DNA of 64,000 bases from Eledone cirrhosa (Eukaryota): assembly GCA_964016885.1 (NCBI GenBank), contig OZ024742.1, positions 75,020,001 to 75,084,000 of the forward strand. The letters run 5' to 3'. Every line of letters begins with the position of its first letter. Position 1 is the stretch's first letter. Below the pieces are notes generated by a model that was not told where the DNA came from, made no database searches, and saw only the letters and a program-made list of their open reading frames with translations. Positions 13,331 through 59,820 of this stretch are shown here, piece after piece. The translations under genes were made by a program, and so were the position numbers.

Positions 13331-16300
13331 GGTCTGGTCTGACGTCTTTTTGCTCGCTCCCTGTAAGTCGCTTTATTTACCTGTTATAATTATTTGTTGT
13401 TAAATTGTTCTCGTTGTGTAAGGGATATAAGCCCTTGGAGTTTGCCCTGTGAAGGGGAAAGTATAACATTTGGGCATTTTAGCCCAAATATTTGAACATT
13501 TTACTTCTAAAAATAAAAAAAAACAAGGCTAAGCCCCCCCTCCCCCCAGCAATATGTCTGCTGCGCTCTGACAACGGTGTAAAAGTTGAGAGGAGGGTTA
13601 CAGAAATTCATACAACAGACACCACGACAAACAACGCGAACAAAGACAGCAACACTGAGAACACTAATTTTGAAAAAATTACCACACCAACTACAACAAT
13701 AACAGCGTCAACCAAAATACAGACAACAGAAAATAATGACAACAAATGCAACAACGATATTAACACCACTAACAAGAAAATAAACAACGACAACACCAAC
13801 AACAACAATACAAATTGCACCGAAAACAACAACAACGGTGGCACCAAAAACATAACCAACTACAACAGTGAATACAGCAACAACACCAACAACACCGTTT
13901 GTAGCAATAGCAACAGCAACATCACCAACAACAAAACCAGTAGTAGGAGTAGCAACAACAACAGTACCAACAACAAGACCAGTAGCAGCAGTAGCGGCAG
14001 CATAATGGTGCCGCTGAAAATGGGGCCACTTCTTTCGCAGGTGTGGCCCGAAATATAGAGACAGTGTTAGTCACGGAGGAGGAGATGGCAGTAGCAAGAG
14101 CCATCGTGTCGAGAAACGACAATAGATTTTCCCTGAAACCTCACCCGTTTTCTTCAAAGACCAGCAGCTGCACACGGTGACTTACCGCACCGTAAGCAAA
14201 ATGTCACATCGGGTGGAGAGAGCCACAGACGACAGCCAAGTAGAGGGACCCCTCCTTCTGACGCCTGATCCGCTGCTACCAAGAGCAGGGCAGGCAACAG
14301 AGGCAGAAGACCCTTCCATGGTGAGTAGGAGGGCAACGTCCGTGGCACCCATACCAAGGCCACAGACAACTAAATCAGCGGCAGCAGTGGCGGGAACACC
14401 AACAGTCGCAGTAGCTACACCGGTAGAAAAATCACCGGAGCGGGCTCCACTACCACCACCAACAGCAGTGGAGCTCATACCCCTCCCAGACGCCACGGAA
14501 TCCGTCATGGAGTATGAGGCGGGAGGGAAGTGGCAAACGGTCTGCCACAAAAAACAAAAAACAAAAATACCGTTAGCTTCACCTTCCAAAAGCGAAGGGA
14601 AATAAAGAGAGGTAAAGGCTGCAAGGAGACTTGCAGCAACACCACCACCATCACCACCACAAGCATCACCACCAACAACAACCACACCACTACCAGCATC
14701 ACCAAAAACAGCAACATCGCAAACACCACAAAGCACACACACCCTACAGCAACAACAAGAAAACAGCAACAAACCACCCCTCTCCCCCCAAAAATACACA
14801 GCCATAAACATGGCAAATAAAGAACTCTTACAACATATAAAGCAGCTCACAAAGATCACAGAAAAAAATGACTACACCCTACCAACACCAAGGACTCTCC
14901 CGAAAAATATAAGCATCAATGACAACTTTTAAAAGAAAAATTTCCCAACGCATTTGGATACTTCAGAGGGTCGGTTACCAAGAGGATATACACCGACATT
15001 CTCTTGGAAACACCCATGACCAGCCAAAGGGACGGTTCTACTGTCCCTTCACCAGACGATCAAGGTAAGTGATCCTTTCTTAGTTACCCCGTTTCTCATC
15101 CAACATGGCCGTACTTAGAATAGACAGTGTAAATGTACGTGGTCTGGGGTCATCTTGGAAGCAGGGTTACCTGCTCAACGACCTCAGGTCACTAAACATA
15201 GATGTGGTGGACATCAGCGAGACCAAAATCTCCGAAGCACGAGCCTTCGCACCGATCTTCGGCGGCTACGATGTATACGCATCTCCCAGCCGTCCAGGGT
15301 CGGGGGAGGGTTGCCGTGCTTTTTCAGAGAGGCTTGGATCTCGCCATACGGGCCATCTTCCTGGACCCAGAAGGTAAGGCGTGGTGCTGGACGTGATCGG
15401 CAGCGAAAGCAATGCTTTCAGGCTAGTAGCCGTCTACGCCCCAACAGGGGCAGGACGGCCAGATTTCTTCAGACGTCTAGAGACCTTTTTTGGAACGTCC
15501 CGCTCTTGGAACGGTATCTTAGATTCACGCTGGAATTATGTGGGCCTAGTAGACAGGGCAGGAGGATGTAAAAGCCTCAACAACCTGATCAGATGTTTTG
15601 TACTGTCTGACAGGTATAGACTGGATTATCCGAATGTGCCAAAGTGGATATGGGCAAACCGCATCGGATCATCCAGATCGTATTTAGGGTAACAGATTCT
15701 GTAGGGAAACAGATAAGGCTAGTGTAGGTTGTCCACACTTTAAAGTAGTCGACTACACGGACCACAAATTTGTGATCTGTGAAGTTGACTTAGATAGACT
15801 CCATAGGGCCCGGCTACTGGAAGCTGAACGGCTCGTTCCCGGCGCGCAAAGCTTACAGAGACCGGATTAGCGAATTAGTTAAGCGTGCGTTGACGGGTGT
15901 GGTCGTCAACAACAGGTGGTGGTTCACCCTGAAAAGGGCTATTAGAGTAGAATCGATAAGGTTTAGCAAAGGAGTAGTGATAGAGGAAAATAGAGTAGAC
16001 GGAGAGTTAGTTAGAAAGCTTGAAGAGGCGTTTAGGACAGGCATCGCAACCTACGTGCTTGCGGAGAGATTGGCACTCGACCACTTCTTCAACGCAAAGC
16101 ATGAAGGCTGCCTTGTCAGAGCTAGAGCGCGTGCTTTAAGACACGAGGGCACGAAAGCCGTTCAATGTGCCCGGGGGGTGGAGGTGCGAGGTGGCAACAA
16201 ATTCACAATTCGGTCTTTGCCCGATCAAAACGGACGCATGTTTCTCGAACCCGAGCAGATGTGTGCGGCTTTTCAACAGCACTTTGCTCAATTGTTCGGG

Positions 16301-19300: not shown

Positions 19301-19495
19301 CACGAGTGACTCTCGGAGGTTTCCCCCTTTTGGGGGAAGTTTTGTGGTTTGAATTTTTTTTTAAATTTCTATTCCGATTTCTATCTTGTTATAACCTATT
19401 TACACGACCAAAACCCACTTTGTATAATCCTGTACTGTTCTGTGCCGTCTCTAATGTTTTTCTTCGTGTCAGCCCTTGTGGCCAATAAAGAAACC
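13331..19495 (+). mobile_element. Tx1/L1-clade LINE copy C (more diverged subfamily), ORF1 internally deleted, interrupted at 18110-18902
   Basis: ORF1 pieces about 13525-15068, lacking the RRM/knuckle after about 14228; ORF2 15105-19223 with many stops; own 3'UTR and ATT tail. Confidence 0.9.
18110..18902 (-). mobile_element. Internally deleted Ingi/Vingi-like (I-group) non-autonomous LINE with 2A-like peptide and PHD finger
   Basis: 13-bp TSD ACAGCTG(C/T)TGTCT at 18097-18109 and 18903-18915; LMAGDVESNPDP followed by a C4HC3 PHD; (AAG)-like tail; the clade assignment is inference. Confidence 0.75.
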
Positions 19496-19523
19496 ATTAT
19501 TATTATTATTATTATTATTATTA

Positions 19524-20803: not shown

Positions 20804-20807
20804 TTAT

Positions 20808-20974
20808 TGGCAGTATCGGTAAGAGTCGGACGCCATGCTTTCCTGCATAGTTACGTCCCTTTACGGTCTGAGTTCAAATCCCGCCGAGGTTAACTTTGCC
20901 TTTCATCCTTACGGAGTCGATAAAATAAAGTACCAATAATGTACTGGCCTTGTGCCAAAGTAGAAACAATTATT
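20808..20974 (+). mobile_element. tRNA-derived SINE copy
   Basis: TGGCAGTATCGG box A, GAGTTCAAATCCC box B, 3' GGCCTTGTGCCAAAGTAGAAACAATTATT. Confidence 0.9.
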
Positions 20975-22536
20975 TTAATTGTCTTTTCGCAAGTACTTTT
21001 GTGGGTGTTACGGGAAGACAGAGTCGTCGTTCTACAGCGATTTGGAAAGCTGACCTGATATCTGACATCAGGTTTTCCTTGACAACATTGCTCCCCTTCT
21101 AGGTTGGCCTCTGGCCTTCTGGTCAGATATTCTTGTTATATGCATGACGTATACATATACATGCATTCTGTTGAATGTCTTTACACATATTCTTTTAAAC
21201 ATAGACAAATAGAAAAAAAGCAACGAATGTGGAATAGAGTTTGGAGGAAACTAGTGATCTTCGTTCACACACACACACACACACGCACACAGACACAGAC
21301 ATGCAGACACACATGCGCACACCAACAACAATAATTACAATATTTAAACCAGGGGAACTAGTATTGATATATTTTTTATAAATAAAAACAAATTAAATAT
21401 TCGTGTTCCTCGAAGAGGAATAAAAACTGTTGTTTCAGATAAAAGAAAACTGAAGGAAAGACAAGCATATGTTACTGTAATGTGCACAGCATATCCTCAG
21501 AAATTATGAGGTACTGAGGCTAAATATATATCATGGCTCTGGGAACGTATTTGATTATTTTCGATTTTTTTAAAAAAAATTTATAACGTTGAAGACCTCG
21601 TTGATTAACTGAAGACAAATGAAATAATTAATAACATCGGGAGCAGTTATTAAGGCTATTTACAGACAGCGGTGAAAACGTGTTCTAAAATTCCGCGATA
21701 CAAAACAAAAGATGGTGCCAGCACATGAACTAAATAATAAAAAAAATATTTTACGATTTCTATTTTGTATTTAAGAAAAAAAAAACAAGTAAAATACAGT
21801 TTTAAAGGAAGTACATAACAGATATTTTGTATTTAGAGTCAAAACACAACATATAGTTTGACAGTAAGCTCATAAATCTATATTATATTTAAAACCAAAA
21901 CATAAAAAAAATATACGAGAGTTGTTTTATTATTTATACATTTTATTCGTAAAATAAAAAAACAAAACGAAGCAATAAGAAAAAATGTATGCATCTATAA
22001 GACCGTCTTTCGTCTAGGCTTCATCTTTGTCAAGTTATATACTACTTTAATATAATTCACGTCAGTAGCCAACTGTATTTCAATAGAGAGCTAAGCTAAA
22101 CAAGAGAGTCCATTATCGTCTATTGTAGAACGAAGGTGCGACTTTATGTACTTGATCCGAATAAAGAATCTTTCCAGAACTACGGTAGTTATATTGGTAA
22201 AGTTAGAAAAATGTGGTATAATGTAGACAGGTAAGGATAAATGGAACATTGACCATCAGGAATTTAAGTGCATTGATGGTTAATTTCCCGACATTTGAAT
22301 TTGCTTATTGTCTTTTTGTACGTGTCTTAGTTAGAAAGTAATTTTCGTACGATAAGAGTTTGACACTACATGATATAGTTGTACGTGTCTGAGAAAAAAA
22401 CTTTTGGCTATGAAAAATATTTTGGCTATAAAATTGAAATCTACATTTTAGAAATGCTCAATTATTTTATCTGTGGTATCTATAACATAATTTAAGGAAG
22501 TTAATTAGAATTATGAAGATGGAAAAGAGTGAATAG

Positions 22537-24050: not shown

Positions 24051-24092
24051 GTGTACAAATAATGGTATGAAATGTTATATAGTTATCTATAG

Positions 24093-24272
24093 ATAATTGT
24101 TTCTACTTTAGGCACAAGGCCAGCAATTACCCAGTGCATTACTGGTACTTTATTTTATCGACCCCGTAAGGATGAAAGGCAAAGTCAACCTCGGCGGGAT
24201 TTGAACTCAGATCGTAAAGGGACGTAACTATGCTGGAAAGCATGGCGTCCGACCCTCTACCGATACTGCCAA
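24093..24272 (-). mobile_element. tRNA-derived SINE copy
   Basis: Reverse complement of the 20808-20974 family, ending GGCCTTGTGCCTAAAGTAGAAACAATTAT. Confidence 0.9.
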
Positions 24273-24329
24273 TCCTGAACATAACCACAAGGATATGGTC
24301 CGAACGTGGAAGAGCCGAACCCCCACTGT

Positions 24330-24846: not shown

Positions 24847-24849
<3 letters not shown>
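24711..24849. repeat. Short element in (TA)n with a ~57-bp terminal palindrome (24712-24768)
   Basis: AGGAACGAGTAG(A)ACCCCGACGGCT..AGCCGTCGGGGT(C)CTACTCGTTCCT. Confidence 0.8.
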
Positions 24850-27350
<2,501 letters not shown>

Positions 27351-28040: not shown

Positions 28041-28120
28041 AGAGTCAATTTAACGCTGGACTCATGTGCACACAACACATAAACACACAAACGCATATAT
28101 ATATATACATATATATATAT

Positions 28121-29191
28121 AACTGAACAAAAAAAGAAAAGCGAACACAGACATATACATATATGTGTTCAAATCGTAAGCGACCAGATTGGCTAAGGTT
28201 TGTATTTATTTTCTTGATTTATTCTTAAATTGAGTCTGGCAAACCCTATTATCTATAGTTAGTATTCTCTTCACCTTAGTGAATCTGGTCCCTTACGATT
28301 TGAACACATATATGTATATGTCTGTGTTCGCTTTTCTTTTTTATTCAGTTATATTATACGGCTCGGAAAAATCTCTTTCCTAGAGCTAATTTATTGTAAG
28401 AAACTATTTTGAGTTTCTAACTCAAAATATGCCTTTTAACTCTGGGGTATTATTCTCCATCGAGTGCTAAAGCTACATTCCGAATCTGCATTCGTTAGCT
28501 TAGACGCAGCCTAAAGCTTCGTTAATGCTGTACTAAAATTTGTATTTTAACTCCTAGAATTAACGATTAACTGATTAATTTAATTAGACAATTCTATTGA
28601 TTGATTAATTGTTTATGTTTGTTTGATAACTTCTGGTTGAGTGATTAATTCGGTTTGTCTAAGGGAATTTCATTCATTTGTCTCAAATTTCGAATTCACC
28701 GCCAAAACGGGGATTACCTCCCTTTGAGAAAACCACGTGTCTATAGCGAAATTTACTGCTAGAACACACCCGCTGAGGCTATAGAACGCAAGACTTGTTG
28801 ACGAAGTAAATCCTTTGTTCTGTTGTCAAAGGCCATTAACTTGTAGACCCCTGCAAGCGGAATTAGTCGAACTCGGATTTACAGAAACCTTGCGTGGATG
28901 TTCTATGTTATATGTGATGTATATCGTATGCTATACGATATGCATTATGTGTTGCATTCGGTCTCCGCGCGATGGTCCAGGTCAGTCAAAAACTTTTCCT
29001 GAGTCCAGTATTTTTCGTTGCTATGGCAATGTGGCTGGAGTGCCGATCGCTATATTTGATTTGCAAAGCTGTCTAAACGTATTGTTATAACTCTGGGGTA
29101 TTATTCTCCATCGAGTGCTAAAGCTACATTCCGTATCTGCATTCGTTAGCTTAGCCGCAGCCTAAAGCTTCATTGATGCTGTACTAAAATT

Positions 29192-29672: not shown

Positions 29673-30211
29673 ATCATGTTATTTCTGTTTACCTTTTACA
29701 TACATACATAATATATATATATATATATTCACAGTATATTTATAATATTATAGGCGTAGTAGATTCATTTATTTATTTTCATGTATTTGCCTAATGTCTT
29801 CCACAGTAATGTGTGCACATACACTTGCACTTATGTGTGCGTATGATTACTCTTTATGTTTGTATGTATGTATAGGTGCACACGGTATATACACACATGG
29901 GGTTGTATGTACAGGCTAATTACCATTGTAAAATTTTTGGAAGGTTTTACAAATGTTTACTGTACCACTAATCGAGGATGCTAATCATTTTGGTTTGTTA
30001 TTTCTTCGTTCTTTCAGACTTTTATGGTACCATGTTTCTACATAGTCCAGAGCACCACTAATAACGTGATACGAAAGAAAATAACAGATTTTGTAGTATA
30101 TTTTGGGCTAAATCCAAATATATTCTCAGTTGGAACGCATTTAATCGTAGATCTTCTGGATTATAATCAAGCGAAGGCTAAATAACTGCAATAACAATAT
30201 AGTCGGATCAG

Positions 30212-30430
30212 CAGACACTGTAACCACAGCAGATACTGCAACCACAGAAGACACTTCAACTGTAGAAAACACTAGAACCATAGTAGACACTGTAACCACA
30301 GCAGATACTGCAACCACAGCTGATACTGCAACTATAGAAGACACTATAACCATAGAAGACACTGCAACCACAGCAGATACTGTAACCACAGCAGATACTG
30401 CAACTATAGAAGACATTGTGGCCACAGCAG
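30212..30430. repeat. 18-bp-period minisatellite (GATACTGCAACCACAGCA-like)
   Basis: About 12 degenerate 18-bp units. Confidence 0.85.
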
Positions 30431-30630: not shown

Positions 30631-31118
30631 TACTAATAATAATAGTAACAGAGTAAATAACAATAAAATGCAAATGACAAGAACAAAACGAAAAAAACTA
30701 AAACAAACACTAATGTAAAAAACCCACATAAACAACAAACAAACGAAACATAGAAAACGACAGCCATGTTTTTCTAGCAAAACATTGTTTACTGTTTCCC
30801 ATTTAATATTGAACTTAAGGCAAGTTTTCATATTTTATATTAGGTGAGTGACTAATTATATTTCAATTGTGGTGGGATGTGTGTTGGCGGTTTAGTCTTC
30901 TAATTCTGTTGAGGAATGGCTTATTTGGGGAGAGTAAACAGCAACAGTTTGCTGAAATCATTTAATTCGGGATTTGATGACGTTTTAACTCATGGTTTGT
31001 GGGTATTTATTTATTTATTTATTTATTCCTTTATTTATTTATGGTTTGTTTTTCGTGACATCAAAACCAAACCAGGAGAAAGGAATAATATTTAGATGGA
31101 GAATTTCAAAATGTTGTC

Positions 31119-33135
31119 ATAATAATTATTTCTTTATTAACCACAAGGGTTTACATAAAGTAGACATTAAGGACAGTGCAGGACAATACAGGACGGTACA
31201 AATGGGCATTTCTGCGTGTAAAAAACAAAAACAGAGGATGTAACAAAAAAATAACAATGAAAAATTCCCCAATTCAGCCCTTTCAAACGTGTCCACCATA
31301 CTATCTCTTTCGCCATGGCCACCAGACAGATAAAAACTGCCTGCCCTTCCCGGCTAAAGGAAGAGTGCGGGGCAATCCTCACGATGGACCCAGATGATAG
31401 CCGGATCCGTTCTACACGCGACAGCAGGTGTTCGACATAAACCCACAAGTCAGCAATTTTCGGACACTGGACGAGTGCGTGCAGGATGGTTTCGTCGCCC
31501 TGCGCGCATCTCGGACATGCCCGGCTGCCCGCACTTCCATGCCTGTAGAGTTTATCCCGAACTGGCAAGGGTCCTCGGTAGCACTGCCAGGCCAGAGATT
31601 TCTGGAAATTATCCATAGGTCCCGGCCCGAAAGTTCTCCCGAAGAGATTGGCTAGTTGATTTTCGTCGACGCCTAGAGTTTCCCCAAGTACGTCGTCGCT
31701 CTTCCCCTCCACTAATCCTTTATAGAACGCCGAGGTGGAGTTTCCACCGATAAAATTGCCCGATTGGTCGAGGGCTGTGAGCGCCTGAAGACATTCCAGT
31801 CTCCAAACGCTCCCTCTCGGTCTTCGCTTGACCCAGGACTGCAGCACTGTCAAGGAAATGAGCTGGGGAAATACGTGTCTAGCAAACGGTGACCACAACT
31901 GATCACCGTCGAGGAAGAGGTGGAGATGTCGTAGCCTGAGCGGGTGTCTGCGCATCATCAGCCACGGCATACCCAGCCCTCCACGTAGCGGGTGTTGACA
32001 GCAGATGGACCGCCTGACCATCGGAGCGCGTCCCTTCCACAAAAAGCGAAAGAGCAAACGCTCCAGCGCAGTCAGGCGGGGATTAGGACAAGGTACGACG
32101 GTCAGGCGGTAGCAGATGACAGACGCGATGTACGCCTTAACCACCTCCGCTCGACCTTTCAGGGATAGCTTCCTCTCCGCCCATTTCTGGGTGAGAGAAG
32201 ACACCCTGCTCGTCACCTCGTCCTAGTTTTTGTCCGTCTGGAGGTCCGGACCGAACCAGACCCCTAGCAATTTAACCGGTCCGTCCGTCCAGCACCCGAC
32301 GACGCTGTTGGATAGCATGGACATGCCTCTCCAGGTGCTGAGCTGCAGGCCCACTGAATTTTCCTGGTTGATCATTGCTCCTGTCACCGCTTCGTATTCT
32401 CTTAGTGTAGTGCCGATCGCCTCGATGTGTTTGGCGTTCGACACCACTACGGTAGCATCGTCCACATATGCTGACACGGATCTTCCGCATCCTAGTTCGC
32501 GTAGGACCCTCCTCAACGTCTCCAGTTTGTGCAGTAATGGCTCGAGAGTCAATACGTACAAGAGGGACGAGAGGGGACATCCTTGGCGGACCTAGCGCAT
32601 GATGTTGAACGGTTCCGAAAGGTGACCGTTCACTCTCACCACAGACCAGATGTCGCTGTGCATGGCAGCGATCCAGCCTCTGAAGACGGGCCCAAAGCCA
32701 GCCGCCCTGAGGACTACCGCTAGGTAACGATGGTCGACCCTATCGAAAGCTTTCGACTGATCTAAATTGATCAATGACCCACCCGTGCCAAGTTCTCGAG
32801 CTACCCTCTCTACGATGTATCGCATGAGGTGGAGGTTGTCATTGATGGATCTGTCGGGAATGCCGCACGTCTGCGCCTCTCCCACCAGACCACCAACGAC
32901 AAGCGCCAACCTCTTTGCTAGCACCTTGGCCAAAATCTTGAACTCTGTGTTTAGCAGAGTTATGGGCCGGAAATTATCTATGTTATCCCCCTTGTTCGGA
33001 TCCTTTCTCAGCAGCGCCACAGCTCCTCGGCTCACAGAGCTGGGAATTCTCCCGTTCTGTTGCCAGTTGCAGTAGACGTCCAGCAAGAGGCCTCCGAACA
33101 AGTCAGGCATCTGTACGTAAAGTTCATAGGGCAGC
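31119..33135 (-). mobile_element. 5'-truncated Tx1-clade copy F (A/B subfamily) with a deletion spanning the ORF2 end and part of the 3'UTR
   Basis: ORFs 32592..33143, 32223..32561, 31167..32216 near-identical to copy B ORF2; junction near 31273 joins ..AAAGGGCTGAA to TTGGGGAATTTTT. Confidence 0.92.
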
Positions 33136-36100
33136 CTTTCCACGTCCCGGTTCGAGCGAAATGCCCTGCAACAGCTCCATCTTCCGCAGTAAAGGCTCGA
33201 GAGTCAATACGTACAGAAGGGAAGAGAGAGAGCCCCCTTGAGGGACCTATCGGGAGAGCCGAAATGGTTCCGAGAAGTGACCATTAACCTTGACCACCGA
33301 GCGTGTGCCGCTGTGCATTGCAGCGATCCAGCTTCTGCAGACAGGGTCGAAGCCAGCTGCTTTGAGGACAAACTCCAGATACCGATGGTCGACCCTATCG
33401 AATGCTTTCGATTGATCTAAATTGATCAGTGCTGACCCGAAGCCAGGTTTACAACCTACCCTCTCTATGATGTATCGCATGAGGTTGAGATTGTCGTGTA
33501 TGGACCTGGCAGGGATTGCACAAGTTTGCGCCTCCCCAACCAAGTCCTCGTCGACAAGCGCCAATCTCTTTGCTAACACCTTGGCCAAAATCTTAAAATC
33601 TGTGTGAGCAGAGTTATAGGCCTGAAGTTGTCTAATGTATCCCTCTTGTTCTCGTCTTTCCTTATCAGAGTCACCACTCCCCGGCTCACAGAACTGGGAA
33701 TACTACCATTCTGATGCCAGTTGCAGTAGAGTGCTTCGAGGAGTTCGGAGAACAAGTCTGGCATATTTACGTAAAACTCGTAGGGCAGGCTATCTAAACC
33801 GGGTGACTTGCGCCTCATGCAGCCGACAAGGGCGTCCTGAATTTCAGCTGAAGTAATCGGCCTTTCGCAGCGCTCAGCGTCGACCGTCGAGATGCGCGGC
33901 AAGCCGTCAAGGTAGGGACTGAAATTCGCTACTCTCTCTGACTCGCCACCCTCCCCGAACAACAGAGCAAAGTGCTGGTGAAAGGCCTCACACATCCGCT
34001 TGGAATCGCTTATCTCGTGTCCGTCTCGGTCCGCCAAAGACCGAATTGTGGTTTTATTACCACGCTCCGCCTCCGCCACGCGGGGCCATGGAACAGCTTT
34101 AGTTCCCTCGTTTCTCAGCACACGCGCCTTAGCTCTGACAATGCAACCTTCTTGTTTCGCATTGAAGAAATGGTCTAATGCCATTCTCACCGCTAGCACG
34201 TCAGTTGCAATGCCACTACAAATAGCCTCGTCTAACCTATCTACCACCTCCTCCTCCTTTCTATTTTTCTCTAACGCTAGTTCTTTGCTGAACTCTATCG
34301 AAGTTACTCTAATCTCTCTTTTGAGAGCCCCCCTACCATCTGTTGTTGATGATCCCCCCTGTCAACGTTTGCTTAACTAAATTGTTGACTCGGTCCCTGT
34401 AAGCCTTACATACCGGAAATGGCATGTTCAGCTTCCAGTAACCCGGTCCCAACCTACGCGTTTTATCTAGGTCGACTATACAGATCACACATTTGTGATC
34501 TGAATAGGCGACCGTTTTAAAAATTGGGCAGCCTACACTATTTCTATCTATTTTCCTAATGAAATCCTGTCTATATACGATCTAAATGACCCTATGCGGT
34601 TGGTCCACGCCCACACTGGCGCATTGGGGAAATCTAGTCGATACCTGTCAGACAGTTGGAACTGGCTGATTAGGTGCTTGAGGCTTTTGAACCCCCCGCA
34701 CCTATCAGCTACTCCCACACAATCCGAGCGTACGTCTAAGATGCGGTTCCAGTCCCCCGTTAACAGTAGAGGGCGAGACGTACCCAGAAAGGTTTCCAGG
34801 CGCCTAAAGAAGTCCGGTCGTCCGGCCCCAGTAGGGGTGTAGACGGCCAGCAGTCTAAAGGCACCATATTCGCTACTGTTCACATCCAGGACCACCAACT
34901 TACCGTCCGGGTTCCGGAAGATCGACCTTACCTCGAGACCCAGACCTTTCCTAAACAGCACTGCAACGCCAGCTCCCATTCCCGGCCTGTTAACAGATGC
35001 GAAGATCTGATAGTCGTCGAAAATGGGGGTTAGTGCGCGCGTGTCGGAAATCCTGGTCTCACTGACGGCAATCACATCCATTTCCAGAGAGCTCAGTTCG
35101 TTGGCAGGTGACACTGCTTCTAGGGTGACCCCAGGCCGCGAACATTTAAACTTCCTACTCTTAATATGGTAATGTTGGCAAGCTAAAAGAGAGAGGGTAG
35201 GTTTACTTATCTCCCGGGGTTTTGTGAAGGTCGGGTGGTTCGACCTCCATAGTTGGTGGGGTTTCTTTTGGGAACCCCTTTAAAAGTCTCCATGTGGATT
35301 TCACATTCGGGGTTCCTACGTCTTGAGGAAAGCTCTCTCGAATTTCTTTGTAGGAATCGAGCGACATTCGCACCAGAAGCAAATCTTCTGGCACGCAAAA
35401 TGTGTTCAATTCAAAGATCTCCCCCTCTGTTTGGATGTCCTCGCTTCGTGCTAAGAGGGCCATCAATTTATCGTTGGCCCTTCTCACAAGTTTTTAATGT
35501 TTTGTTGGTGTGGTTTTATTTGTTTTCGTTTTGGTAACTGTGGTGGTGATGGTTTTGGTGGTGTTTTTTCGGGTATGTCTGTGTTTGTTGTAGGTTTTGT
35601 GTCTGCAATTTCAGGTGTCAGTGTGTTTATTTGTTCTTGTGTTTGTTTAGGTTGTTTGCTTTTCGGGGATTGTGGGGGTGGTGTTGATGTTGACGTTGGT
35701 GTTGATGTTATTGGGGAAGTGTTTGTGTTAGTGGTGTCTGTATTTTTTGTTGTGTATGATTTTGTGTTTTGTTGGGGCTTTATTTTGGCGAGTTTTCTCT
35801 TTTGTTTTTTGGTACTTTTGGGTTTTCTTTCATCTTCACGGCTGGTAGACAAAGGGTCTGTGGCTGTGAGTGTATCTGTGTCTGTGTGTGCATTTATTGT
35901 TTTGTCTATGTGTAAAATTTGAGGGGTAGGGGGAGTGGGAGAGCTTTCCTCGTTTTCCCCTTGTATTGGTTTCGGTACTGGTGGTGGTCCGACTGTTTTT
36001 GATGTTGGTGGGGTTACCCGTGTCATTGTTGGTGTTGCTTTTGGTGGTGGTGGTGCAGCTTTCCCTGCTGACACTGGCGTTGGCAACAAAGGAGGTTTGC

Positions 36101-36960
36101 GACCCCCTGCATTTTTGAGCTGAGGGCAGAAGGCTTGCAGAATCGTTGCTTCCCCGCAGACGAAGCAGTGCGGTCTTCTTCCCTCAGTGATTAATAGGAT
36201 TGTTGTCCCGTCCTGCAGGCGGGCTAAATCCGGTATGTTGTTGATTTGGAGAAGAATCTCCAAATCCATTCCGGACCAGTCTTCTCTCTCTGTCCTTTTG
36301 ATATCCAGGAGGGTAGTGTCTGTCCCTTCCTCGATTACGCATCCCAGGAGCCATATGTTCATTCTTGGTGGGATCCTGGGAATGCGGAACTTTACTGTCC
36401 TTTTGCCCATGTAGGACGGGTGCATGATAATGCGTTCCGTTCTGCAGGGGGTCACCGAGTGCTTAATAGCAAGGGCCTCGGTTTTGAACAGTACCGAGAT
36501 AGTACCGAACTGCTTGACCCTTGCTTTGTACTCGATGTCACTTCCGATGCACTTTAAAGCAGCCTCAATCTCTGCTTGGCTGGTGATTTCCACTTTGCCT
36601 GTCTGCACTGAAATGCATCGAATGTACACCGTCCTCCTTTGCGTGGCCTCTATTGCCCCGTCCAGGATGGTTAGGTTAGCCCAGGACTTCTCCCGTTTAA
36701 TTAACCTCCACGGCTGGAACAACTGTTGTTCCTTATCGCTAATATCTACATTGAAGAAGCGCTTTGTGCTCGCTGTTGCCGCTGCAAAGGTGGCGCCTCC
36801 GTTGCTCTTCTTGTTGGTGTTGTCGTTCTTGCTGTTGTTGTTGTTGTTTTGTTTGTTGTTGCTGTTGCCACCGCCATCAGTGTTTACAGTGAGGCTGTCG
36901 GTGTTATTGTCGTTGTTCTGAGTTGTTGTTGTGGTGATGGTGATGATAATAGTAATAATA
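33136..36960 (-). mobile_element. Tx1-clade copy D (distinct subfamily): ORF1 + APE + N-terminal half of RT, truncated at both ends
   Basis: ORF1 35484..36986 and 35203..35487; APE 34548..35114; RT 33573..34247 and 33247..33588; ends just before YADD. Confidence 0.88.
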
Positions 36961-36968
36961 ATAATAAT

Positions 36969-39273
36969 GCTTTCGTTATTAACCACAAGGTTTTACACAA
37001 AGTGAGACATTAAGGACAGGAGAGGACAATACAGGACAATACAGGACGGTACAAATGGGCATTTCTGCGTGTAAAAAACAAAAACAGAGGATGTAATAAA
37101 AAAGGGACAATGAAAAATTCTCCAATAGGGGGCCACCGTGGAGAAAGCCCATTAAAAAAAGACACGGTGACCCTGACCACCAGGGCAAGTGCCCGCTCCC
37201 AGTTTTCCACCTTCAATTTACAGGCACATACTCATAGTAGGCCCATTTACTCGGGCTATTCTTGCCTCTCTCACCCATCTCTTAACAAAATGCTGGGAAG
37301 AGAGCACTTCCTTCTCTACGCTGATTTTCCTTTTCAAATGAAATTTGAAAAAGTTAATCAGGGCATCACGGAAGAGGTACGTGCTCGTCTTCAGCCCTTT
37401 GGGACGCGTCCACCATACTATCTCTTTCGCCATGGCCACAAGACTGATAAAAACTACCTGCCCTTCCTGGCTAAAGGAAGAGGGCCGGGCAATCCTCGCG
37501 ATGGACTCAGCTGATATCCGGATCCGTTCTACACGCGACAGCAGTTGTTCGACATAAACCCACAAGTCAGCAATGCTCGGTCACTGGACGATTGTGTGCA
37601 GGATGGTTTCGTCGCCCTGCCCGCATCTTGGACATGCCCGGCTGAAGGCACTTCCATGCCTATAGAGTTTAACCCGAACTGGCAAAGCTCCTCGGTAGCA
37701 CTGCCAGGCCAGGGATTTCTGGAAATTGTCCATAGGCCACCGCCCGAAAGTTCTTCCGAAGAGATTGGCTAGTAGATTTTCGTCGACGCCTAGAGTTTCC
37801 ACAAGTACGTCGTCGCTCTACCCCTCCACTAATCCTCTATAGAACGCCGAGGTGGAGTTTCCACCGATCACATTGTCCGATTGGTAGAGGGCTGTGAGCG
37901 CCTGAAGACATTCCAGTCTCCAAGCGCTCCCTCTCGATCCTCGCTTGACCCAGGACTGCAGCTCCGTCAAGGAAACGCGCTGGGGAAAGACGCGTCTAGC
38001 AAACGGCGACCACACTTGATCACCGTCGAGGAAGAGGTGGAGATATCGTAGCCTGAGCGCGTGTCTGTGCATCATCAGCCACGGCATACCCAGCACTGCA
38101 CGTAGCGGGTGTTGACAGCAGATGGACCGCCTGACCATCGGAGCACGTCCCTTCCACAAAAAGCAGTCTGGCGAGGCTTAGGACAAGGCACGACGGTCAG
38201 GCGGTAGTAGATGACGGACGCGATGTACGCATTCGCCACCTCCGCTCGACCTTTCAGGGATAGCTTCCTCTCTGCCCATTTCTGGGTGAGAGAAGCCACC
38301 CTGCTCGTCACCTCGTCCCAGGTTTTGTCCGTCTGGAGGTCTGGACCGAGCCAGACCCCTAGCAATTTAACCGACGCTGTTGGATGGCATGGACCTGCCT
38401 CTCCAGGTGCCGAGCTGCAGGCCCACCGACTTTTCCCGGTTGATCATTGCTCCTGTCACGGCTTCGTATTCTCTTGGTGTAGTGCCGATCGCCTCGATGT
38501 GTTTGGCGTTCGACACCACTACGGTGACATCGTCCGCATATGCTGACACGGATCTTCCGCATCCTAGTTCGTGCAGGAACCCCCGCAACGTCTCCAGTTT
38601 GTGCAGTAATGGCTCGAGAGTCAATACGTACAAGAGGGACGAGAGGGGACATCCTTGGCGGACCGAGCGCATGATGTTGAACGGTTCCGAAAGGTGACCG
38701 TTCACTCTCACCACAGAGCAGATGTCGCTGTGCATGGCAGTGATCCAGCTTCTGAAACGGGCCCAAACCCAGCCGCCCTCAGGACTGTCGCCAGATAACG
38801 ATGGTCGACCCTATCGAAAGCTTTCAACTGATCTAAATTGATCAAGGACCCACCCGTGCCAGGTTCCCTAGCTACCCTCTCCACGATGTATCGCATGAGG
38901 TGGAGGTTGCCCTAGATGGACTGTCTGGATTGGCGCATGTCTGCGCCTCTCTTACCAGACCACAAACGACAACCGTCAACCTCTTTGCTAGCACCTTGGC
39001 CAAAATCTTGAACTCTGTGTTTAGCAGAGTTATGGACCTAAAATTATCTATGTTATCCCCCTTCTTCGGATCCTTTCTCAGCAACGCCACCGCTCCTCTG
39101 CTCACGGAGCTGGGGATTCTTCCGTTCTGTTGCCAGTTGCAGTAGACATCTGCCAAGAGGCCTCCGAACAAGTCTGGCATCTGTACGTAAAGTTCATAGG
39201 GCAGACCATCCAAACCAAGCGATTTACCCCTTTGCAGCCAGTCATTGCGAACTAGTTAAGCGTGCCATCGTCA
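36969..39273 (-). mobile_element. 5'-truncated Tx1-clade copy G with a short 5' inversion
   Basis: RT/CCHC homologous to copy B; ATT tail at about 36947-36968; 39247-39273 is ORF2 sequence in the opposite orientation. Confidence 0.92.
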
Positions 39274-39274
<1 letters not shown>

Positions 39275-39343
<69 letters not shown>

Positions 39344-39344
39344 T
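39275..39344. repeat. (AAT)n microsatellite between copies G and H
   Basis: Direct reading. Confidence 0.98.
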
Positions 39345-40780
39345 GGTTTCTTTATTAGCCACACAGGGCTCATATTAAGCAAACAATAGAGGTGGTACAG
39401 GATGATACATGGGTTTTTGTGTGTAAAAAATATTATAACAAAACTAAAAAAATAAACATTTAGAAAACCAACCAAACAAAACTAATTCCACAAATTGGGT
39501 GGATGGGGTAGGAGACTTCTGAAGGTCACACGTGAAGAAAACTCGCAACAAGACATGGTCCTGACTGCTAGGGTAAATGCCTTCTCACAATTGTCCTCTA
39601 ATTTGCAAGCACATACTCAGAGGAAGCCTGTTCACTTGTGCCATCCTCATGATTCTCATTAACCTTTCAAGAAGCTGGTTGGAAGGCAGCATTTCCCTAT
39701 CCTCACTGACCTCTTCTTCAAATGAAACTTTCAAAAGTTAACCAGGGTTTCACTGAAGAGGAAATTGCTTGTCTTCAAATATATCAAAGGCGTCCGCCAC
39801 ACTTTTTCGTTCGCCATGACAACTAAACAAACATGTAAAAATTGTCTGTCCTTACTGGCAAAAGGAAGACGGTTTTGTGATATTCATGATGGACTCAGGT
39901 GATAGCTGGATCCATCCTGCAGGTGTTCGACATAAATCCACATGTCAGCAATATTTGGACATTGGAGGAGTGTGTGCAGAAATGTTTCGTCACCTTGCGC
40001 GCATCTTGGACAGGTCTGGCTGATGAAACTTCTATGTCTGTAGAATTATCTCGAACTGGTAATGCTCCTTTGTCGTACTGCTAGGCCAGGGATCTCTGGA
40101 AGATTTTCCAAGAACCCTGGGCCTAAAGTTCTCTGGAAAAGGTTGGCTAGTTGATTTTCGTCAACACCCAGAGTGTCTCCAAGAACGTCGTCACTTTCAG
40201 CCGCCACTACCTCTATAGAACGCCAAGATGGAGTTTCAACTGATCATACTGCCCTATTGATTGAGGGATGTGAGCACTTGAAGACGTTCTAGTTTTCAAG
40301 CGCTCCTTCTCGGTCTCGCTTTGCCCAGTAATGTAGCACTGTGTAGGATACAAGCTGGGAAAAACCATATCTATCAAACGGTGGCCATACCTGTTCACCG
40401 CCAAGGAAAAGCTGGAGATGTCGTAGCTTCAACGCATGTTTGCATATCATCAGCCATGTTTATGTTTCTTTTTGTTAGTTTTGCATTTGTTGTTGTAGAT
40501 GTGGGTTTGTTTGTGTTTGGGATATTGTTGGTGATTGTGGTGTCTGTTATGATGTTGATGAATGTGGTGGTAGGGTTGCTATAGGTGTTGACACTAGTTA
40601 CCTCAGGGATTTGGCCTTTCCCAATCCTTTTATGAAGGCGAAACCAGAGAGTTTTCCTTTTTTCCTTTTTGTGGATGACGGTTTGCCACTCTACACCCTC
40701 ATCACAATTCATATCCAATTGTGTAGCGTCGGGTGGCGACATTTCTTCCACACACGTTGGTGTTGGTTATGGAACACTGA
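39345..40780 (-). mobile_element. Old Tx1-clade copy H: ORF1 fragment fused to the 3' part of ORF2
   Basis: ORF 40395..40751 PDATQLDMNCDEGVEWQTVIHKK (ORF1 motif) joined near 40455 to the WLMM region of ORF2; 3' end CCCTGTGTGGCTAATAAAGAAACCATT. Confidence 0.8.
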
Positions 40781-44216: not shown

Positions 44217-44368
44217 CTGCAATTCGTTAGATTCATTGAATGAGCTAGACGATGGCAAGAGGATGCTGTATTAATACCAGCGACCTTCGTTAATTTTGTT
44301 ATATACATATATATATACTTTGGCTACGTACACCTAATCAATTTATTCATGGTGTCAACTTATATAAC

Positions 44369-44460
44369 TCTGGGTGAGAAATTTATTTTCGCACCTTTGA
44401 GTGCTTTGTGACTGCCTCAAACAATTCGATTCGAGAAACAGCTTCGATTTATACCTAATA

Positions 44461-44509
<49 letters not shown>

Positions 44510-44510
44510 C

Positions 44511-44544
<34 letters not shown>

Positions 44545-44558
44545 TATATGGGTGAGAA

Positions 44559-44600
<42 letters not shown>

Positions 44601-44689
44601 GGGTGAGAAATTTATTTTCGCACCTTTGAGTGCTTTGTGACTGCCTCAAACAATTCGATTCGAGAAACAGCTTCGATTTATACCTAATA

Positions 44690-44780
<91 letters not shown>

Positions 44781-44781
44781 C

Positions 44782-44800
<19 letters not shown>
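44369..44800. repeat. ~97-bp unit duplicated within (TA)n (44369-44465 and 44598-44695)
   Basis: Identical copies separated by TA repeats and a 14-bp stub at about 44550. Confidence 0.85.
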
Positions 44801-44822
<22 letters not shown>

Positions 44823-44850
44823 GTATTTATATATATATATATATATATAT

Positions 44851-45063: not shown

Positions 45064-45103
<40 letters not shown>

Positions 45104-45204
45104 ATGTATATATAATGTATTTTGCAATACACTTTATGCTTAATTAAAAGCATTTTGAAGACCGTAAGCTATTGTTTTAAAGTAGTGACAAATTCACTCA
45201 CTTT

Positions 45205-45297
45205 GATCTCAGCAAACAGGGGAGATAAACCGACAAGACTTGTTTCGCTTTGGTTGAAGCTTATCAAGGCCAACTACCCCACCTGTTTACTGAGATC
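45205..45297 (-). ncRNA. Type I hammerhead ribozyme, U3-A8 core variant
   Basis: Reverse complement of 45675-45767. Confidence 0.85.
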
Positions 45298-45674
45298 ATT
45301 GATGTTATATTCTTATAGAAATCTAGTAAATAATCAGGAGCTGATTATGCAGAGCGGTTGTTGGTCAGGCAGAAATTAAAAATTAGAATTGGAGCTCTGA
45401 AATAGCAATATATATATGGATGTATATATAATGTCCCTGTTTGCTGAGATCAAAGTGAGTGAATTTGTCACTACTTTAAAACAATAGCTTACGGTCTTCA
45501 AAATGCTTTTAATTAAGCATAAAGTGTATTGCAAAATACATTATATATACATCCATATATATATTGCTATTTCAGAGCTCCAATTCTAATTTTTAATTTC
45601 TGCCTGACCAACAACCGCTCTGCATAATCAGCTCCTGATTATTTACTAGATTTCTATAAGAATATAACATCAAT

Positions 45675-45767
45675 GATCTCAGTAAACAGGTGGGGTAGTT
45701 GGCCTTGATAAGCTTCAACCAAAGCGAAACAAGTCTTGTCGGTTTATCTCCCCTGTTTGCTGAGATC
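45675..45767 (+). ncRNA. Type I hammerhead ribozyme, U3-A8 core variant; predicted cleavage after GUC at 45740
   Basis: GGCC-TTGATAA-GCTT-CAACCA-AAGC-GAA-ACAA-GTC-TTGT-C-GGTT, plus a long distal stem I GATCTCAG..CTGAGATC. Confidence 0.87.
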
Positions 45768-45899
45768 AAAGTGAGTAAATTTGTCACTACTTTAAAACAA
45801 TAGCTTACGGTCTTCAAAATGCTTTTAATTAAGCATAAAGTGTATTGCAAAATACATTATATATACATCCATATATATATTGCTATTTCAGAGCTCCAA

Positions 45900-45930
<31 letters not shown>

Positions 45931-45935
<5 letters not shown>

Positions 45936-46518
45936 CATGAGAAGAATGAATACTGCGTGGTTGCACATGGGTTACATATGATAAAAATAGTCCTTCATCA
46001 GTGATTTTCCAACCTTCATTGGTATTTCATCGCTTTAAAAATCATATACCTCCAGTTGGTGCGAGCAATAGCTAAATAAAGCTATTGGGACAAGTAAATC
46101 GCGTAAAGCGAGCGAGACAAATAAACAAACATAGAGGGATAGCAACGCAAAGATAGGAAAAAACAAGCACATGGGAGTCCGATCAGCTTAAGCTGTGTGG
46201 ATTTCATGATCGAGAGACAGCAGACCGTCCGACGCGAGTGAGGTGTGAGCAAGAAAGGACCCCACTTCAGGCCAAACGGGAGGAAGTGAGAAGGGGAGAA
46301 GCAGAGAGTGAGTGAGTGGAAGTGCGAGGAAGAAGCCAGTCGAGAGAAAGTGTAACTGACAGAGGGGCGAAAGAAGGCGAGAGAAACAGAGAGAAGGGGG
46401 AAGCAGTAAGAGAGAAATAGACAAACGCAGCTGGGGAAAATATATATAAAAAACATGAGAAGAATGAATACTGCGTGGTTGCACATGGGTTACATATGAT
46501 AAAAATAGTCCTTCATCA

Positions 46519-46523
<5 letters not shown>
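45931..46523 (-). mobile_element. 518-bp-period element in (TA)n with a 75-bp terminal direct repeat containing a half hammerhead core
   Basis: 45931-46005 = 46449-46523; minus strand CTGATGA-AGGAC-TAT without the partner GTCC-GAAA. Confidence 0.6.
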
Positions 46524-48748: not shown

Positions 48749-49112
48749 CAACTGCCGGACTTTGAAAACAGGTGAAGATATATAATTTTTTCGTCTGTGT
48801 AAATGAGGTGATTAATCTTATTTGCATAAGTTAGATCAACTTAACATAGAGTAGAATTAGAATTTAGCTTCGAAAATAGCTGTATACAAATATGGCTTTC
48901 TAAATGTTTATTTATAAACATACCACATTTCTTTAGAAATACGAAATTCAAATACATATTTGTATACAGCTATGTTCAAAGCTAAATTCTAATTCTATTC
49001 TATATCAAGTTGAGCCAGTTTATACAGCTTCATGTGCAAATGAGATTAATCACCTCATTTACACAGATGAAAAACCTATATATTTTCACCTGTTTTCAAA
49101 GTCCGGCAGTTG
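48749..49112. mobile_element. Foldback/MITE-like element with ~145-bp imperfect inverted arms
   Basis: CAACTGCCGGACTTTGAAAACAGG .. CCTGTTTTCAAAGTCCGGCAGTTG; central part duplicated again at about 49232-49329. Confidence 0.7.
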
Positions 49113-52867: not shown

Positions 52868-53231
52868 CTAGTCTCATAACCGTACTGCTAGAAATAACAG
52901 TCGTATATACGAGACGGTTTGCAGCTCAAACTAGGAGCAGTTAAAATTAATAAGGTAATGAATTCTTTTACAATGGAATCAGCTCGAATGAGGAAAAATA
53001 TCCCCTGAGCAGTGTATACATTAATATGTAAGTGATGAAACACAGATACCAACACATCTGTATATATATTGCAAAAGAAAAATTTAGCCAGATTGAAGTA
53101 TACTAATTATTATACTACAGTTTGTCCATATCGATTTAAAATAATAAATCAACGGAGACGAACTGTATTGGCAAAAGGCCGTGATGTTTAGACACATTTA
53201 AATTTCAAAATCAAACCTGTTCCGTAGATAA

Positions 53232-53307
53232 GTTTAGACTTTAAGATCCAAATATGTTTCGAGTTAAATAAGTGTAGGAATATCATGTCCCGCTCTCCTC
53301 AGTAAAC
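53232..53307 (-). ncRNA. Type I hammerhead ribozyme (mirror copy in the left palindrome arm)
   Basis: Reverse complement of 53416-53491. Confidence 0.72.
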
Positions 53308-53415
53308 ATCCAGAGACAAATTGATATGCTTCACTTCTAAATGATTTAAAAGACTGCGTGACGCCGCAGTCTTTTAAATCATTTAGAAGTGAAGCATATC
53401 AATTTGTCTCTGGAT

Positions 53416-53491
53416 GTTTACTGAGGAGAGCGGGACATGATATTCCTACACTTATTTAACTCGAAACATATTTGGATCTTAAAGTCTAAAC
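53416..53491 (+). ncRNA. Type I hammerhead ribozyme with canonical core; predicted cleavage after GUC at 53486
   Basis: GTTTA-CTGAGGA-GAG-(29 nt)-CTC-GAA-AC-(16 nt)-GT-C-TAAAC. Confidence 0.72.
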
Positions 53492-53821
53492 TTATCTACG
53501 GAACAGGTTTGATTTTGAAATTTAAATGTGTCTAAACATCACGGCCTTTTGCCAATACAGTTCGTCTCCGTTGATTTATTATTTTAAATCGATATGGACA
53601 AACTGTAGTATAATAATTAGTATACTTCAATCTGGCTAAATTTTTCTTTTGCAATATATATACAGATGTGTTGGTATCTGTGTTTCATCACTTACATATT
53701 AATTTATATATATATATATGTATATATAGTGTATTTTGAAATACACTGCATGCTTGATTAAAAGCATTTGGAAGACCTTACGCTATTGTTTTAGAGTAGT
53801 GACAGTCTCACTTACTTAAAA

Positions 53822-55149: not shown

Positions 55150-55285
55150 TTTTCCGTATCTATCCTTTGTAATCCTGTCTCTAAATTTAGTACTCACGAA
55201 GAAGGGCTAAAGCCTGACACGTCAAACTTTCCTTCAATATAAAGCGTGAGACTAATAAGACTTTTTGTATATTTTGTCGTTTCCT
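55150..55285 (+). mobile_element. Penelope-type LTR relic with a degenerate minimal hammerhead (55195-55224)
   Basis: ACGAAGA-A-GGGC-TAAA-GCCT-GACA-CG-TC; same layout and downstream motif as 22830-22892. Confidence 0.45.
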
Positions 55286-55309
55286 ATATATATATATATA
55301 TATATATAT

Positions 55310-56100
<791 letters not shown>

Positions 56101-57078: not shown

Positions 57079-57245
57079 AATTGGCAGTATCGGTAGAGGG
57101 TCGGACGCTATGCTTAGCAGCAAAGAGTTACGGCCCTTTATGGTTTGAGTTCAAATCCCGCCAACGTTAACTTTGCCTTTCATCCTTGCGGGGTCGATAA
57201 AATAAAGTACCAGTAATGCTGGCCTTGTGCCAAAAAGTAGAAACA
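57079..57245 (+). mobile_element. tRNA-derived SINE copy with 12-bp TSD ATTATTTAAAGG
   Basis: Same family as 20808-20974; TSD at 57067-57078 and 57246-57257. Confidence 0.92.
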
Positions 57246-58689
57246 ATTATTTAAAGGGATAGAATATTGTGTAAATTCAGAGTGTTAGGAAAATACAGAG
57301 CGGAAACGTAAAGTATATTCCAGGAAAATAACAACAATTTGGCATAACTACAACATATATGTATAGTTTTGAACTTTTCACCACACTGAACCTTATTATA
57401 ATAATGCTCTATTTTGTTTCATATACCTATGGGTTTATTGGTTCACTTAATCAGATGAATACCATTTATGCGTACATACATACATACATGCGACATGCGT
57501 ACATACATACATATATACATACATACATAACTACATACATGTTCTAAAGAATATCACATTTCAAATATCAATTAACAATAATCTAAACGAACCTTTTAAG
57601 TCAACAGATTGCAACTGCAAACAATACTACGTCATGTTTGTTAATGGTAAGTACTTCACACAGTAAGTTGTGTATAGAGTAAACATAATAAAGGTAGATC
57701 GGATGGAGAGAGCCCACATTGGCTTCACAGAACATAGATATAAAACTAAATATACGTAGCAGATTCATGCCTCTAAACACACTGATAGAATCAACTCTAT
57801 CTCTGTACTCAAATATATCTGTTAATTGAAGGCAAGCAAAATAACCAACATGTATACGTTGTATCATCGCTAAAACTGCTACTTACTGTTGACAGAGTAG
57901 TAACATATGTTAAACAGGATGTCGAAAATTTTGTCCGCATGGAGGCACGAGATTTCTTCTAAATGATTTCGACTGCAGCCATGAAATCTGCCCCCCCCCC
58001 GACCACCAGCAGAGGTTATTTATCAGATGCATCTGACATGACACTATAGTAATTTCCATCTGTACATTACAGCAAAGATCATCTGAATTCCAGCGACACT
58101 TTTATTACAATAACACTGTTCCTGTAAAACCGAAAAGCAGACTAACCACTTCCACAAAACTCCTCCACACTAACCCATCGTCTATATACCATCCCATCAT
58201 TGTAATATGTCTTATTACCTAGCTAAGTTGATTAAAACAGATCTAACTGCTGGTCAACTTGTTCTTACAAAATGTAAGCTAGAAATCTGATATTTCATCT
58301 CATTCCTTGTCAGCTTAAGAATCCCACATGGATAAAAATTCTTAGTAGAAACAAAATGAATGATAAAATACATTCATATATAAACTTCAGCCATATTTTC
58401 TCTCACTTAACTTTCGGAACTTTCACCACCTTTTACACTTTTCTTTCTCATTATTTGAAATAGCTTTCTTTGAATATTACCATAGACTCTAAGATACCTA
58501 TGTGTATAAGATCTTGAGCTATAATGTCACCACGCGTTTCTATAACACTGTCTTTATTCTGGATTATTTAGGTTTTTACATTTAAAATACTGACAGACTA
58601 TATGGTGAATATATGGTTATCACATACAATATATACAAGAATTAATTTAAATAATTTAATCTAACAAACTTAATTTCCTGTTCACAATT

Positions 58690-59152
58690 TTCTCTAGACC
58701 AGCAGTCACCCATGCATATCTGTCTCCCTTCTCCACGCCACAGGCGTCGTCCAAGGAAAAAGCAAAATCTAATACAACTTAGCACCAGTGACGTCGCAAC
58801 TCATTTCTACGGCTGAGTGAACTGGAGCAACGTGAAATAAAGTGAAAATTGTGAACGGCTGAGTGAACTGGAGCAACGTGAAATAAAGTGAAAATTGTGA
58901 ACGGCTGAGTGAACTGGAACAACGTGAAATAAAGTGAAAATTGTGAATGGCTGAGTGAACTGGAACAACGTGAAATAAAGTGAAAATTGTGAACGGCTGA
59001 GTGAAGTGGAGCAACGTGAAATAAAGTGAAAATTATGAACGGCTGAGTGAACTGGAACAACGTGAAATAAAGTGTTTTATTCAAGGACACAATTCATTGC
59101 CCGCTCGGGGACTCGAACTGACAACCTCACAATTGTGAATCGAATTCTCTAA
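58690..59152 (-). mobile_element. Second tRNA-derived SINE family (CORE-like body) with an internal 46-bp tandem amplification
   Basis: Box B AGTTCGAGTCCC near 59108-59119 (-); ~5.8 copies of a 46-bp unit at 58809-59074. Confidence 0.7.
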
Positions 59153-59641: not shown

Positions 59642-59820
59642 CATATATATATATATATATGTTGATTTAAAACTGCACTATCAACAAGTGTTTTTTTTAG
59701 CCTTCATATCATGTTCTCCTGTTTTATCTGATGAAAACACAAATATTATTGCTTGATGATGTTTGTTTTTGAAATGCGCATAATAAAATATATGGAACTC
59801 CTTTCACCATCTTTTGATCT

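Follow-up and report, generated by a model that had tools for sequence, protein, structure and literature searches.

A 316-nt Hammerhead-Bearing Repeat of Eledone cirrhosa with the Insertion Structure of Penelope-Like Elements

The window analysed here, a stretch of 64,000 nt from Eledone cirrhosa, contains three loci of a 316-nt repeat (family A), which are very probably insertions of progeny copies of a non-autonomous Penelope-like element (PLE), 316 nt long and of the non-LTR retrozyme type. The best reading of the loci is that they are progeny copies primed from both target strands. The DNA displays a covarying type I hammerhead ribozyme in a 316-nt period, 5'-truncated arms placed head-to-head, two classes of 3' ends and flanks made of AT repeats. 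It should be noted that the evidence base comprises three loci and six ends only.

The link between retrozymes and PLEs has so far been drawn only from co-occurrence and pLTR phylogeny, with the mechanism left open (10.64898/2026.07.22.740005), and family A provides a test case for it. That circles serve as templates was put forward in 2014 (PMC4209133) and is still a hypothesis. The tails and inversions of so young a 316-nt family indicate that it was the short unit itself that moved in the PLE manner. Because the period is short, the lengths of arms from many copies can be counted in "laps", and such lap lengths could settle the choice between a circular and a linear template as well as that between twin priming and snap-back. 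If the loci were indeed footprints of a circle, mapping them across the genome would establish the retrozyme circles of animals as true intermediates of retrotransposition by PLEs, a step that the literature cited here only proposes.

Repeat unit and arrangement of the three loci

The self-comparison of the window gave a start-to-start spacing of 316 nt, and unit positions 1–316 were defined as 45565–45880 on the plus strand of locus 1. The same comparison placed family A at about 45.1–45.9, 53.7–54.4 and 55.3–55.6 kb (L1, L2 and L3; arms are denoted by locus and strand), and a profile search with the unit (nhmmer) revealed no copies in the window beyond these three. The original prediction had counted two loci; L3, at about 55285–55655, has to be added to them. 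The features of family A are the following (unit positions in brackets):

45565–45880, plus strand: one 316-nt unit; 33.5% GC, longest ATG ORF of 28 aa
45435–45906, plus strand: L1 direct arm, a partial/full/partial tandem (187–316, 1–316, 1–26)
45434 to 45092, minus strand: L1 inverted arm (290–316, 1–316); no tail; one hammerhead
45881–45906, plus strand: 26-nt "tail" (1–26), the long-class 3' end
45819–45880, plus strand: a set of three small hairpins that ends in the internal AT tract, the short-class 3' end
45064–45101, no strand: left (AT)n target tract of L1, merging with the arm's own terminal AT tract
45905–45931, no strand: right (AT)n target tract of L1
54121–54447, plus strand: L2 direct arm (25–316, 1–26), one unit plus 2 nt; tail present; GAAA changed to GACA
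54121 to 53706, minus strand: L2 inverted arm (229–316, 1–316); no tail; hammerhead at about 53902 to 53827
55392–55634, plus strand: L3 direct arm (73–316); no tail
55310–55391, minus strand: L3 inverted arm, starting at most 1 nt from the ribozyme cut site (about 176/177) and running to about 256, followed by a deletion and the AT tract

Every locus consists of a head-to-head pair of 5'-truncated arms, the 5' ends of which meet (at 45434/45435 in L1), while the 3' ends point outward into (AT)n. The inversion was found at 3/3 loci and the partial tandem at 2/3; each arm contains 0.3–1.5 units, and the 316-nt period is seen through partial tandems of 1.1–1.5 units. The arrangement predicted earlier was thus recovered at L1, partial/full/partial on the plus strand and partial/full on the minus strand, and at L2, which was said to have the same design with a plus-strand part of almost exactly one permuted unit. 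The exact positions given for it were off by 1–8 bases.

Locus 1 is young, as there is one difference in 343 bases between its arms (342 identical). Its tandem copies are identical at 155 of 156 bases, and the single G/A difference, at 45777, is the same one that distinguishes the arms. The arms of L2 and L3 are 93% and 86% alike, respectively. Between loci, the identity over positions 25–228 is 65–80%, which corresponds to diverged subfamilies, and the junctions are different at each locus.

The hammerhead ribozyme and the kind of element

Every complete unit comprises a stem I, UUGAUAA, a stem II of 4 bp that bears a CAANNA loop, GAAA, a stem III and GUC. The hammerheads that were located in addition to the one in the L2 inverted arm are as follows:

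45675–45767, plus strand: type I hammerhead with a long outer stem I; core UUGAUAA (U3:A8) at 45705, GAAA, GUC; predicted cut after 45740 (unit position 176)
45267 to 45232, minus strand: hammerhead of the L1 inverted arm (core to cut)
cut after 55493, plus strand: hammerhead with a palindromic stem III in the L3 direct arm

The family-A core has C3:G8 swapped for U3:A8, a variant that has been reported in the PLE hammerheads of Schistosoma (PMC4209133). The core is kept in all core-bearing copies (5/5), with GAAA mutated in one and the closing pair of stem II broken in one. The stem II sequences vary between loci with the pairing kept, and compensatory or two-sided changes were found in stems I and II as well as in the outer stem and the 3' hairpin. 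A scan for the hammerhead motif gave five matches (three distinct motifs) in the window versus two cores in 20 shuffled windows. At the Rfam gathering threshold no match was obtained in the window; by E-value, HH9 was the only relevant family, matching at L1+ (23.9 bits, E 0.0025, below the gathering score of 52), L1− and L2−. The miRNA families that Rfam returned by E-value were rejected as artefacts of AT repeats or palindromes.

The fold of the unit was more stable than 100 of 100 shuffles (z −5.3), which agrees with the many hairpins noticed earlier, except that the first hairpin quoted had been taken from the inverted arm (45331) and has its sense form at 45625. In the predicted circular fold, 54% of the bases are paired, in local hairpins and without a rod. 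Two predictions speak against easy cleavage: in L1, L2− and L3 the MFE structure has the core base-paired to the strand of stem III, and in the four family-A segments that were folded the active hammerhead lies 1.1–8.9 kcal/mol above the MFE, with tertiary contacts outside the model. The UUG of the U3:A8 core is the part that can pair with this strand (45705–45740 and equivalents in L2− and L3+), so that the predicted MFE is inactive in three subfamilies. Speculatively, this modelled pairing could be a latch that keeps the RNA uncut.

The unit shows traits of a retrozyme: its length lies within 170–400 nt, its GC content is low (33.5%), it is non-coding (28 aa at most), and there is a type I hammerhead in each unit. 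Active retrozymes have been defined by no fewer than two units in succession whose ribozymes are complete (10.64898/2026.07.22.740005), and this was seen in 0/6 arms. No locus carries two ribozymes on the same strand; the loci therefore cannot release a monomer or a circle themselves. The metazoan non-LTR retrozymes (PMC7229834; 10.64898/2026.07.22.740005) are alike in having a low-GC, non-coding unit of about 300 nt with one type I hammerhead and a head-to-tail period, which family A displays in its partial tandems; they include molluscan examples, and PLEs have been proposed as their mobilising partner. Unlike arrays of at least two ribozymes, the family-A arms are inverted pairs with a PLE tail, and they further differ in the U3:A8 core. 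Tails and inversions are not described on retrozymes in the accessible text of these sources, the word "inverted" occurring 0 times in that of PMC7229834.

Family A also displays the marks of PLE insertions, namely the partial tandem with an inverted, 5'-truncated head-to-head copy, an optional tail and a (TA)n bias. Insertions of PLEs have been described as partial tandems whose 5' end adjoins a 5'-truncated copy in inverted orientation, with a 30–40-bp tail, often at one end only, and a bias toward (TA)n targets (PMC8557442); the structure described in PMC3846280 is alike, with head-to-head as the usual orientation. The EN+ PLEs (Penelope/Poseidon, Neptune, Naiad; PMC8557442, PMC3846280, PMC11167929) thus share with family A the tandem, the inverted copy, the optional one-end tail and the AT-rich or (TA)n targets, as well as a type I hammerhead upstream of internal RT starts. 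However, family A has no ORF, and its tail measures 26–36 nt, with the boundary blurred by the AT tract, versus 30–40. Its end region consists of AT-rich hairpins, whereas that of the PAc PLE is an AC-rich loop, and Naiads are described as lacking canonical hammerheads. The Cercyon hammerheads of Schistosoma (PMC4209133) show the same U3-A8 covariation and occur as opposite-strand pairs 100–700 bp apart, but family A, with its 4-bp stem II and CAANNA loop, long stem I and a stem III, resembles a canonical type I motif more than it does the minimal motif of PLEs. The non-autonomous Chlamys PLEs such as MRC1 (PMC8557442) are likewise derived from PLEs and non-coding, and their insertions include pLTRs and head-to-tail arrangements; they differ in belonging to green algae and, in most cases, in having no canonical hammerhead.

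A partner protein was looked for among 124 ORFs of the window (20 ORFs and 104 shorter ones outside the LINE clusters, the LINE-cluster ORFs being covered in part). None of them matched GIY-YIG, and the RT matches were LINE-type (APE/RT/zf-RVT). With no PLE ORF among those scanned, the PLE partner is a putative one; the 316-nt unit has no ORF remnant and is not an autonomous EN+ PLE. As for related animals, 31 recently active PLE families have been described in Octopus vulgaris (PMC13282606), and hammerheads have been annotated in the giant squid (PMC6962438). The PLE structure and the proposed PLE–retrozyme link are repeated in PMC8969392 and PMC11722881. A search of the open-access literature gave no report of the present family, of an octopus retrozyme or of retrozymes with tails or inversions. 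Each part of the structure has a precedent, and a PLE specialist would recognise it; Repbase or Dfam may already contain the family.

Two explanations would do away with a short mobile RNA or with the loci themselves. It is improbable that the arms represent no more than the 3' termini of a long autonomous PLE, as solo pLTRs, or that they arose by satellite or MITE rearrangements at the DNA level. PLE insertions are mostly 5'-truncated, and for the birth of retrozymes a local amplification that starts from a pLTR has been proposed (10.64898/2026.07.22.740005), which would suit such an origin. However, the same 316-nt junction (AT tract to position 1) is repeated inside the arms of two subfamilies about 20% apart, which indicates that the short period was inherited and that the unit is a short mobile one, not only the end of a long element. 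There is also no ORF remnant and no fixed terminal inverted repeat, and the junctions differ at every locus. Less probable still is an assembly or read fold-back artefact in AT microsatellites, in spite of the near-identical arms of L1 (342/343), the identical arms (339/339) of a second, unrelated element (family B), the nearby duplications bounded by AT tracts (44361–44601/44590–44823 and 45921–46005/46440–46523) and the known trouble that PLE inversions cause in assemblies (PMC8557442). A read fold-back is contradicted by the recurrence of the head-to-head design in diverged subfamilies: L2 and L3 share it although their arms are only 93% and 86% alike, the three loci are 65–80% identical over positions 25–228 with different junctions, and the arms stop at boundaries of the element, where their flanks differ.

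3' ends, RNA template and origin of the inversion

Two of the six arms (L1+ and L2+) end at CCAATTCTAAT followed by (AT)n and carry the 26-nt extension. The other four (L1−, L2−, L3+ and L3−) end in the internal AT tract (positions about 304–316), 26–36 nt earlier, where the AT tract makes the exact terminal base illegible. These ends lie 166 and 130–140 nt downstream of the ribozyme cut, respectively. The claim that both loci end at the same base holds for L1+ and L2+ (same base ±1, chance about 0.01) but not as a fixed end, with four arms stopping at the AT tract. Likewise, the mapping of 3' ends that had been suggested as a check, run on the six arms of the window, gave two classes and no single fixed end. 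The 26–36-nt extension is present at one end each at L1 and L2, so that the tail is found on the longer arm (L1), the shorter arm (L2) or neither (L3). All six arm ends adjoin (AT)n, which makes up 5.8% of the window, the test being weakened by four of them lying inside the element's own AT tract. The search for a TSD gave nothing above 5 nt for family A, and none was visible through the microsatellites.

By analogy with PLEs, two ends 26–36 nt apart, with the longer one on one side only, would be the PLE tail. The purified PLE protein nicks and extends both target strands in vitro, and its RT starts at two internal RNA sites downstream of the hammerhead cut, the interval between which is the tail; cleavage by the hammerhead is not needed, as ribozyme mutants inserted normally (PMC11167929). 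Since RT starts at internal sites downstream of the cut in PLEs, a defined start far from the cut is expected PLE behaviour. The original prediction is supported in its internal RT start far from the cut, now as two alternative starts, and in its (TA)n targets and PLE-type inversion, which are described PLE features (PMC8557442, PMC3846280, PMC11167929). The hairpin region 45819–45880 is a candidate RT recognition or start region. Alternatively, the short-class ends could come from annealing to the target (TA)n and not from a second RT start.

In the explanation that we prefer, a PLE protein (RT + GIY-YIG) supplied in trans would nick a (TA)n tract on both of its strands. Either nick would then prime cDNA on the element RNA at one of the two internal starts, 130–140 or 166 nt past the cut, with the start site chosen independently at each end. 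The joining of the two truncated cDNA ends with 0–3 nt of microhomology would produce the inversion. Neither of the two L2 arms lies wholly within the other, and a simple snap-back copy cannot give such a result; together with the placement of the tail on the longer, the shorter or neither arm, this favours independent priming from both nicks.

Independent priming leaves unexplained the spacers between the arms, 103, 119 and 101 nt at L1, L2 and L3 (45435–45537, 54002–54120 and 55392–55492; post-hoc P 0.01–0.04). They would suit a single cDNA whose 3' end folds back about 100–120 nt and primes the second arm on itself, the hairpin being resolved into the target, that is, the same element with a different origin of the inversion. 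Self-priming has been proposed for PLE inversions (PMC3846280), twin priming and self-annealing are described as mechanisms of the LINE named L1 (10.1101/2024.12.14.628481), and family B folds back on itself perfectly around a 6-nt spacer, where a 3-nt inverted repeat is present. Such a snap-back is nevertheless rather unlikely for family A: the pairing at its three junctions is no longer than 0–3 nt, and the L2 tail is on the shorter arm, the would-be copy, and absent from the would-be source arm. Five of the six arms extend across the site cut by the ribozyme, in line with the predicted template that runs through it; their template was therefore not a linear monomer left by the cut, for which the limit would be 140 or 166 nt. 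Given the PLE reading, the continuous template has a little better than an even chance of having been an uncut linear multimer and somewhat under an even chance of having been a ligated circle. All six arms are within the limits of a linear cut-to-cut dimer (482/456 nt; the longest arm has 472). A ligated circle and an uncut linear multimer yield the same cDNA, and DNA cannot separate them; the predicted "signature of a circular RNA" is thus not supported as worded, while "or multimeric RNA", offered with it, stands.

A sub-case of the preferred explanation has the RT lapping a ligated 316-nt circRNA, with L2+ stopped after one lap at its own primer. This is possible, though the balance leans against it. 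In its favour, L2+ starts at position 25 and ends at position 26, five of six arms cross the cut site, and the repeated segments in L1 differ at one base. Moreover, metazoan retrozyme RNAs are mostly circular, the route has been proposed, and it would regenerate more-than-unit copies, as suggested in PMC7229834 and PMC4209133. Against it, L2+, one unit plus 2 nt, is the only exact-unit arm among six (chance about 0.056) and equally fits twin priming on one linear multimer, with the gap as the tail segment; L1+, L1− and L2− run past one unit without a stop, and no arm exceeds the linear-dimer limit. L3− starts within 1 nt of the cut site (chance 0.056), as would a run-off from a linear cleaved end. 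[quoted passage not shown] The private changes of L2 among the 78 positions 229–306 (four in the outer segment, with two AT-boundary columns set aside, one in the inner segment and two in the plus-strand one) fit decay after insertion and are uninformative on a single circle. It is rather unlikely that the loci directly record how a PLE enzyme copied a circular retrozyme RNA starting at the two target nicks, with exact-lap arms, two starts and a constrained 100–120-nt offset.

Family B and other repeats of the window

The features of the second element, which is unrelated to family A, are as follows:

53020–53703, no strand: family B, a fold-back with arms identical at 339/339 bases and a 6-nt spacer, adjoining the AT tract of L2
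53421 (CUGAGGA core) to 53486 (cut): candidate type I hammerhead of family B

Both arms of family B end at the same base, and about 41 nt come after the internal AT tract. Its hammerhead candidate is weaker than those of family A (local z 0.5; active fold 9.7 kcal/mol above the MFE). The nhmmer search found no copies in the window beyond the two arms, and the TSD search gave a doubtful 7-nt match. Family B is possibly a second PLE-derived family, and a snap-back copy fits it best. An isolated CUGAUGA/GAAA motif at 59728–59782 (plus strand) has weak stems and was set aside as probably due to chance.

Beside L1 there are short, near-identical, AT-bounded duplications (44361–44823, and 45921–46005 with 46440–46523), which may be due to slippage, target duplication or assembly stutter. 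Two imperfect palindromes, at 48749–49112 and 28112–28358, have arms 94% and 96% complementary; the motif scan found no hammerhead in them, and they may be MITE-like or other fold-backs.

LINE copies with an APE endonuclease, RT and zf-RVT cluster at about 1600–19500 and 31000–40500, end in (ATT)n and are 70–95% identical, standing in tandem on the plus strand and again on the minus strand. The best named relative of a LINE RT of the window is from Argonauta hians (70%). An RT fragment at 328–738 (minus strand) belongs to a different non-LTR lineage, its identity with the RT of the main LINE being only 28% over 69 aa; we take its motifs to be of the non-LTR type. ARAGORN found 0 tRNA genes. 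Three copies of a SINE-like repeat of roughly 180 nt, 84–89% identical, lie at 20806–20978, 24087–24273 and 57080–57256, and presumably resemble cephalopod SINEs. The window also contains a 2.5-kb (TA)n array (24848–27347), a 46-nt minisatellite of 5.8 copies (58809–59074) and an array of an 18-nt repeat (30209–30430).
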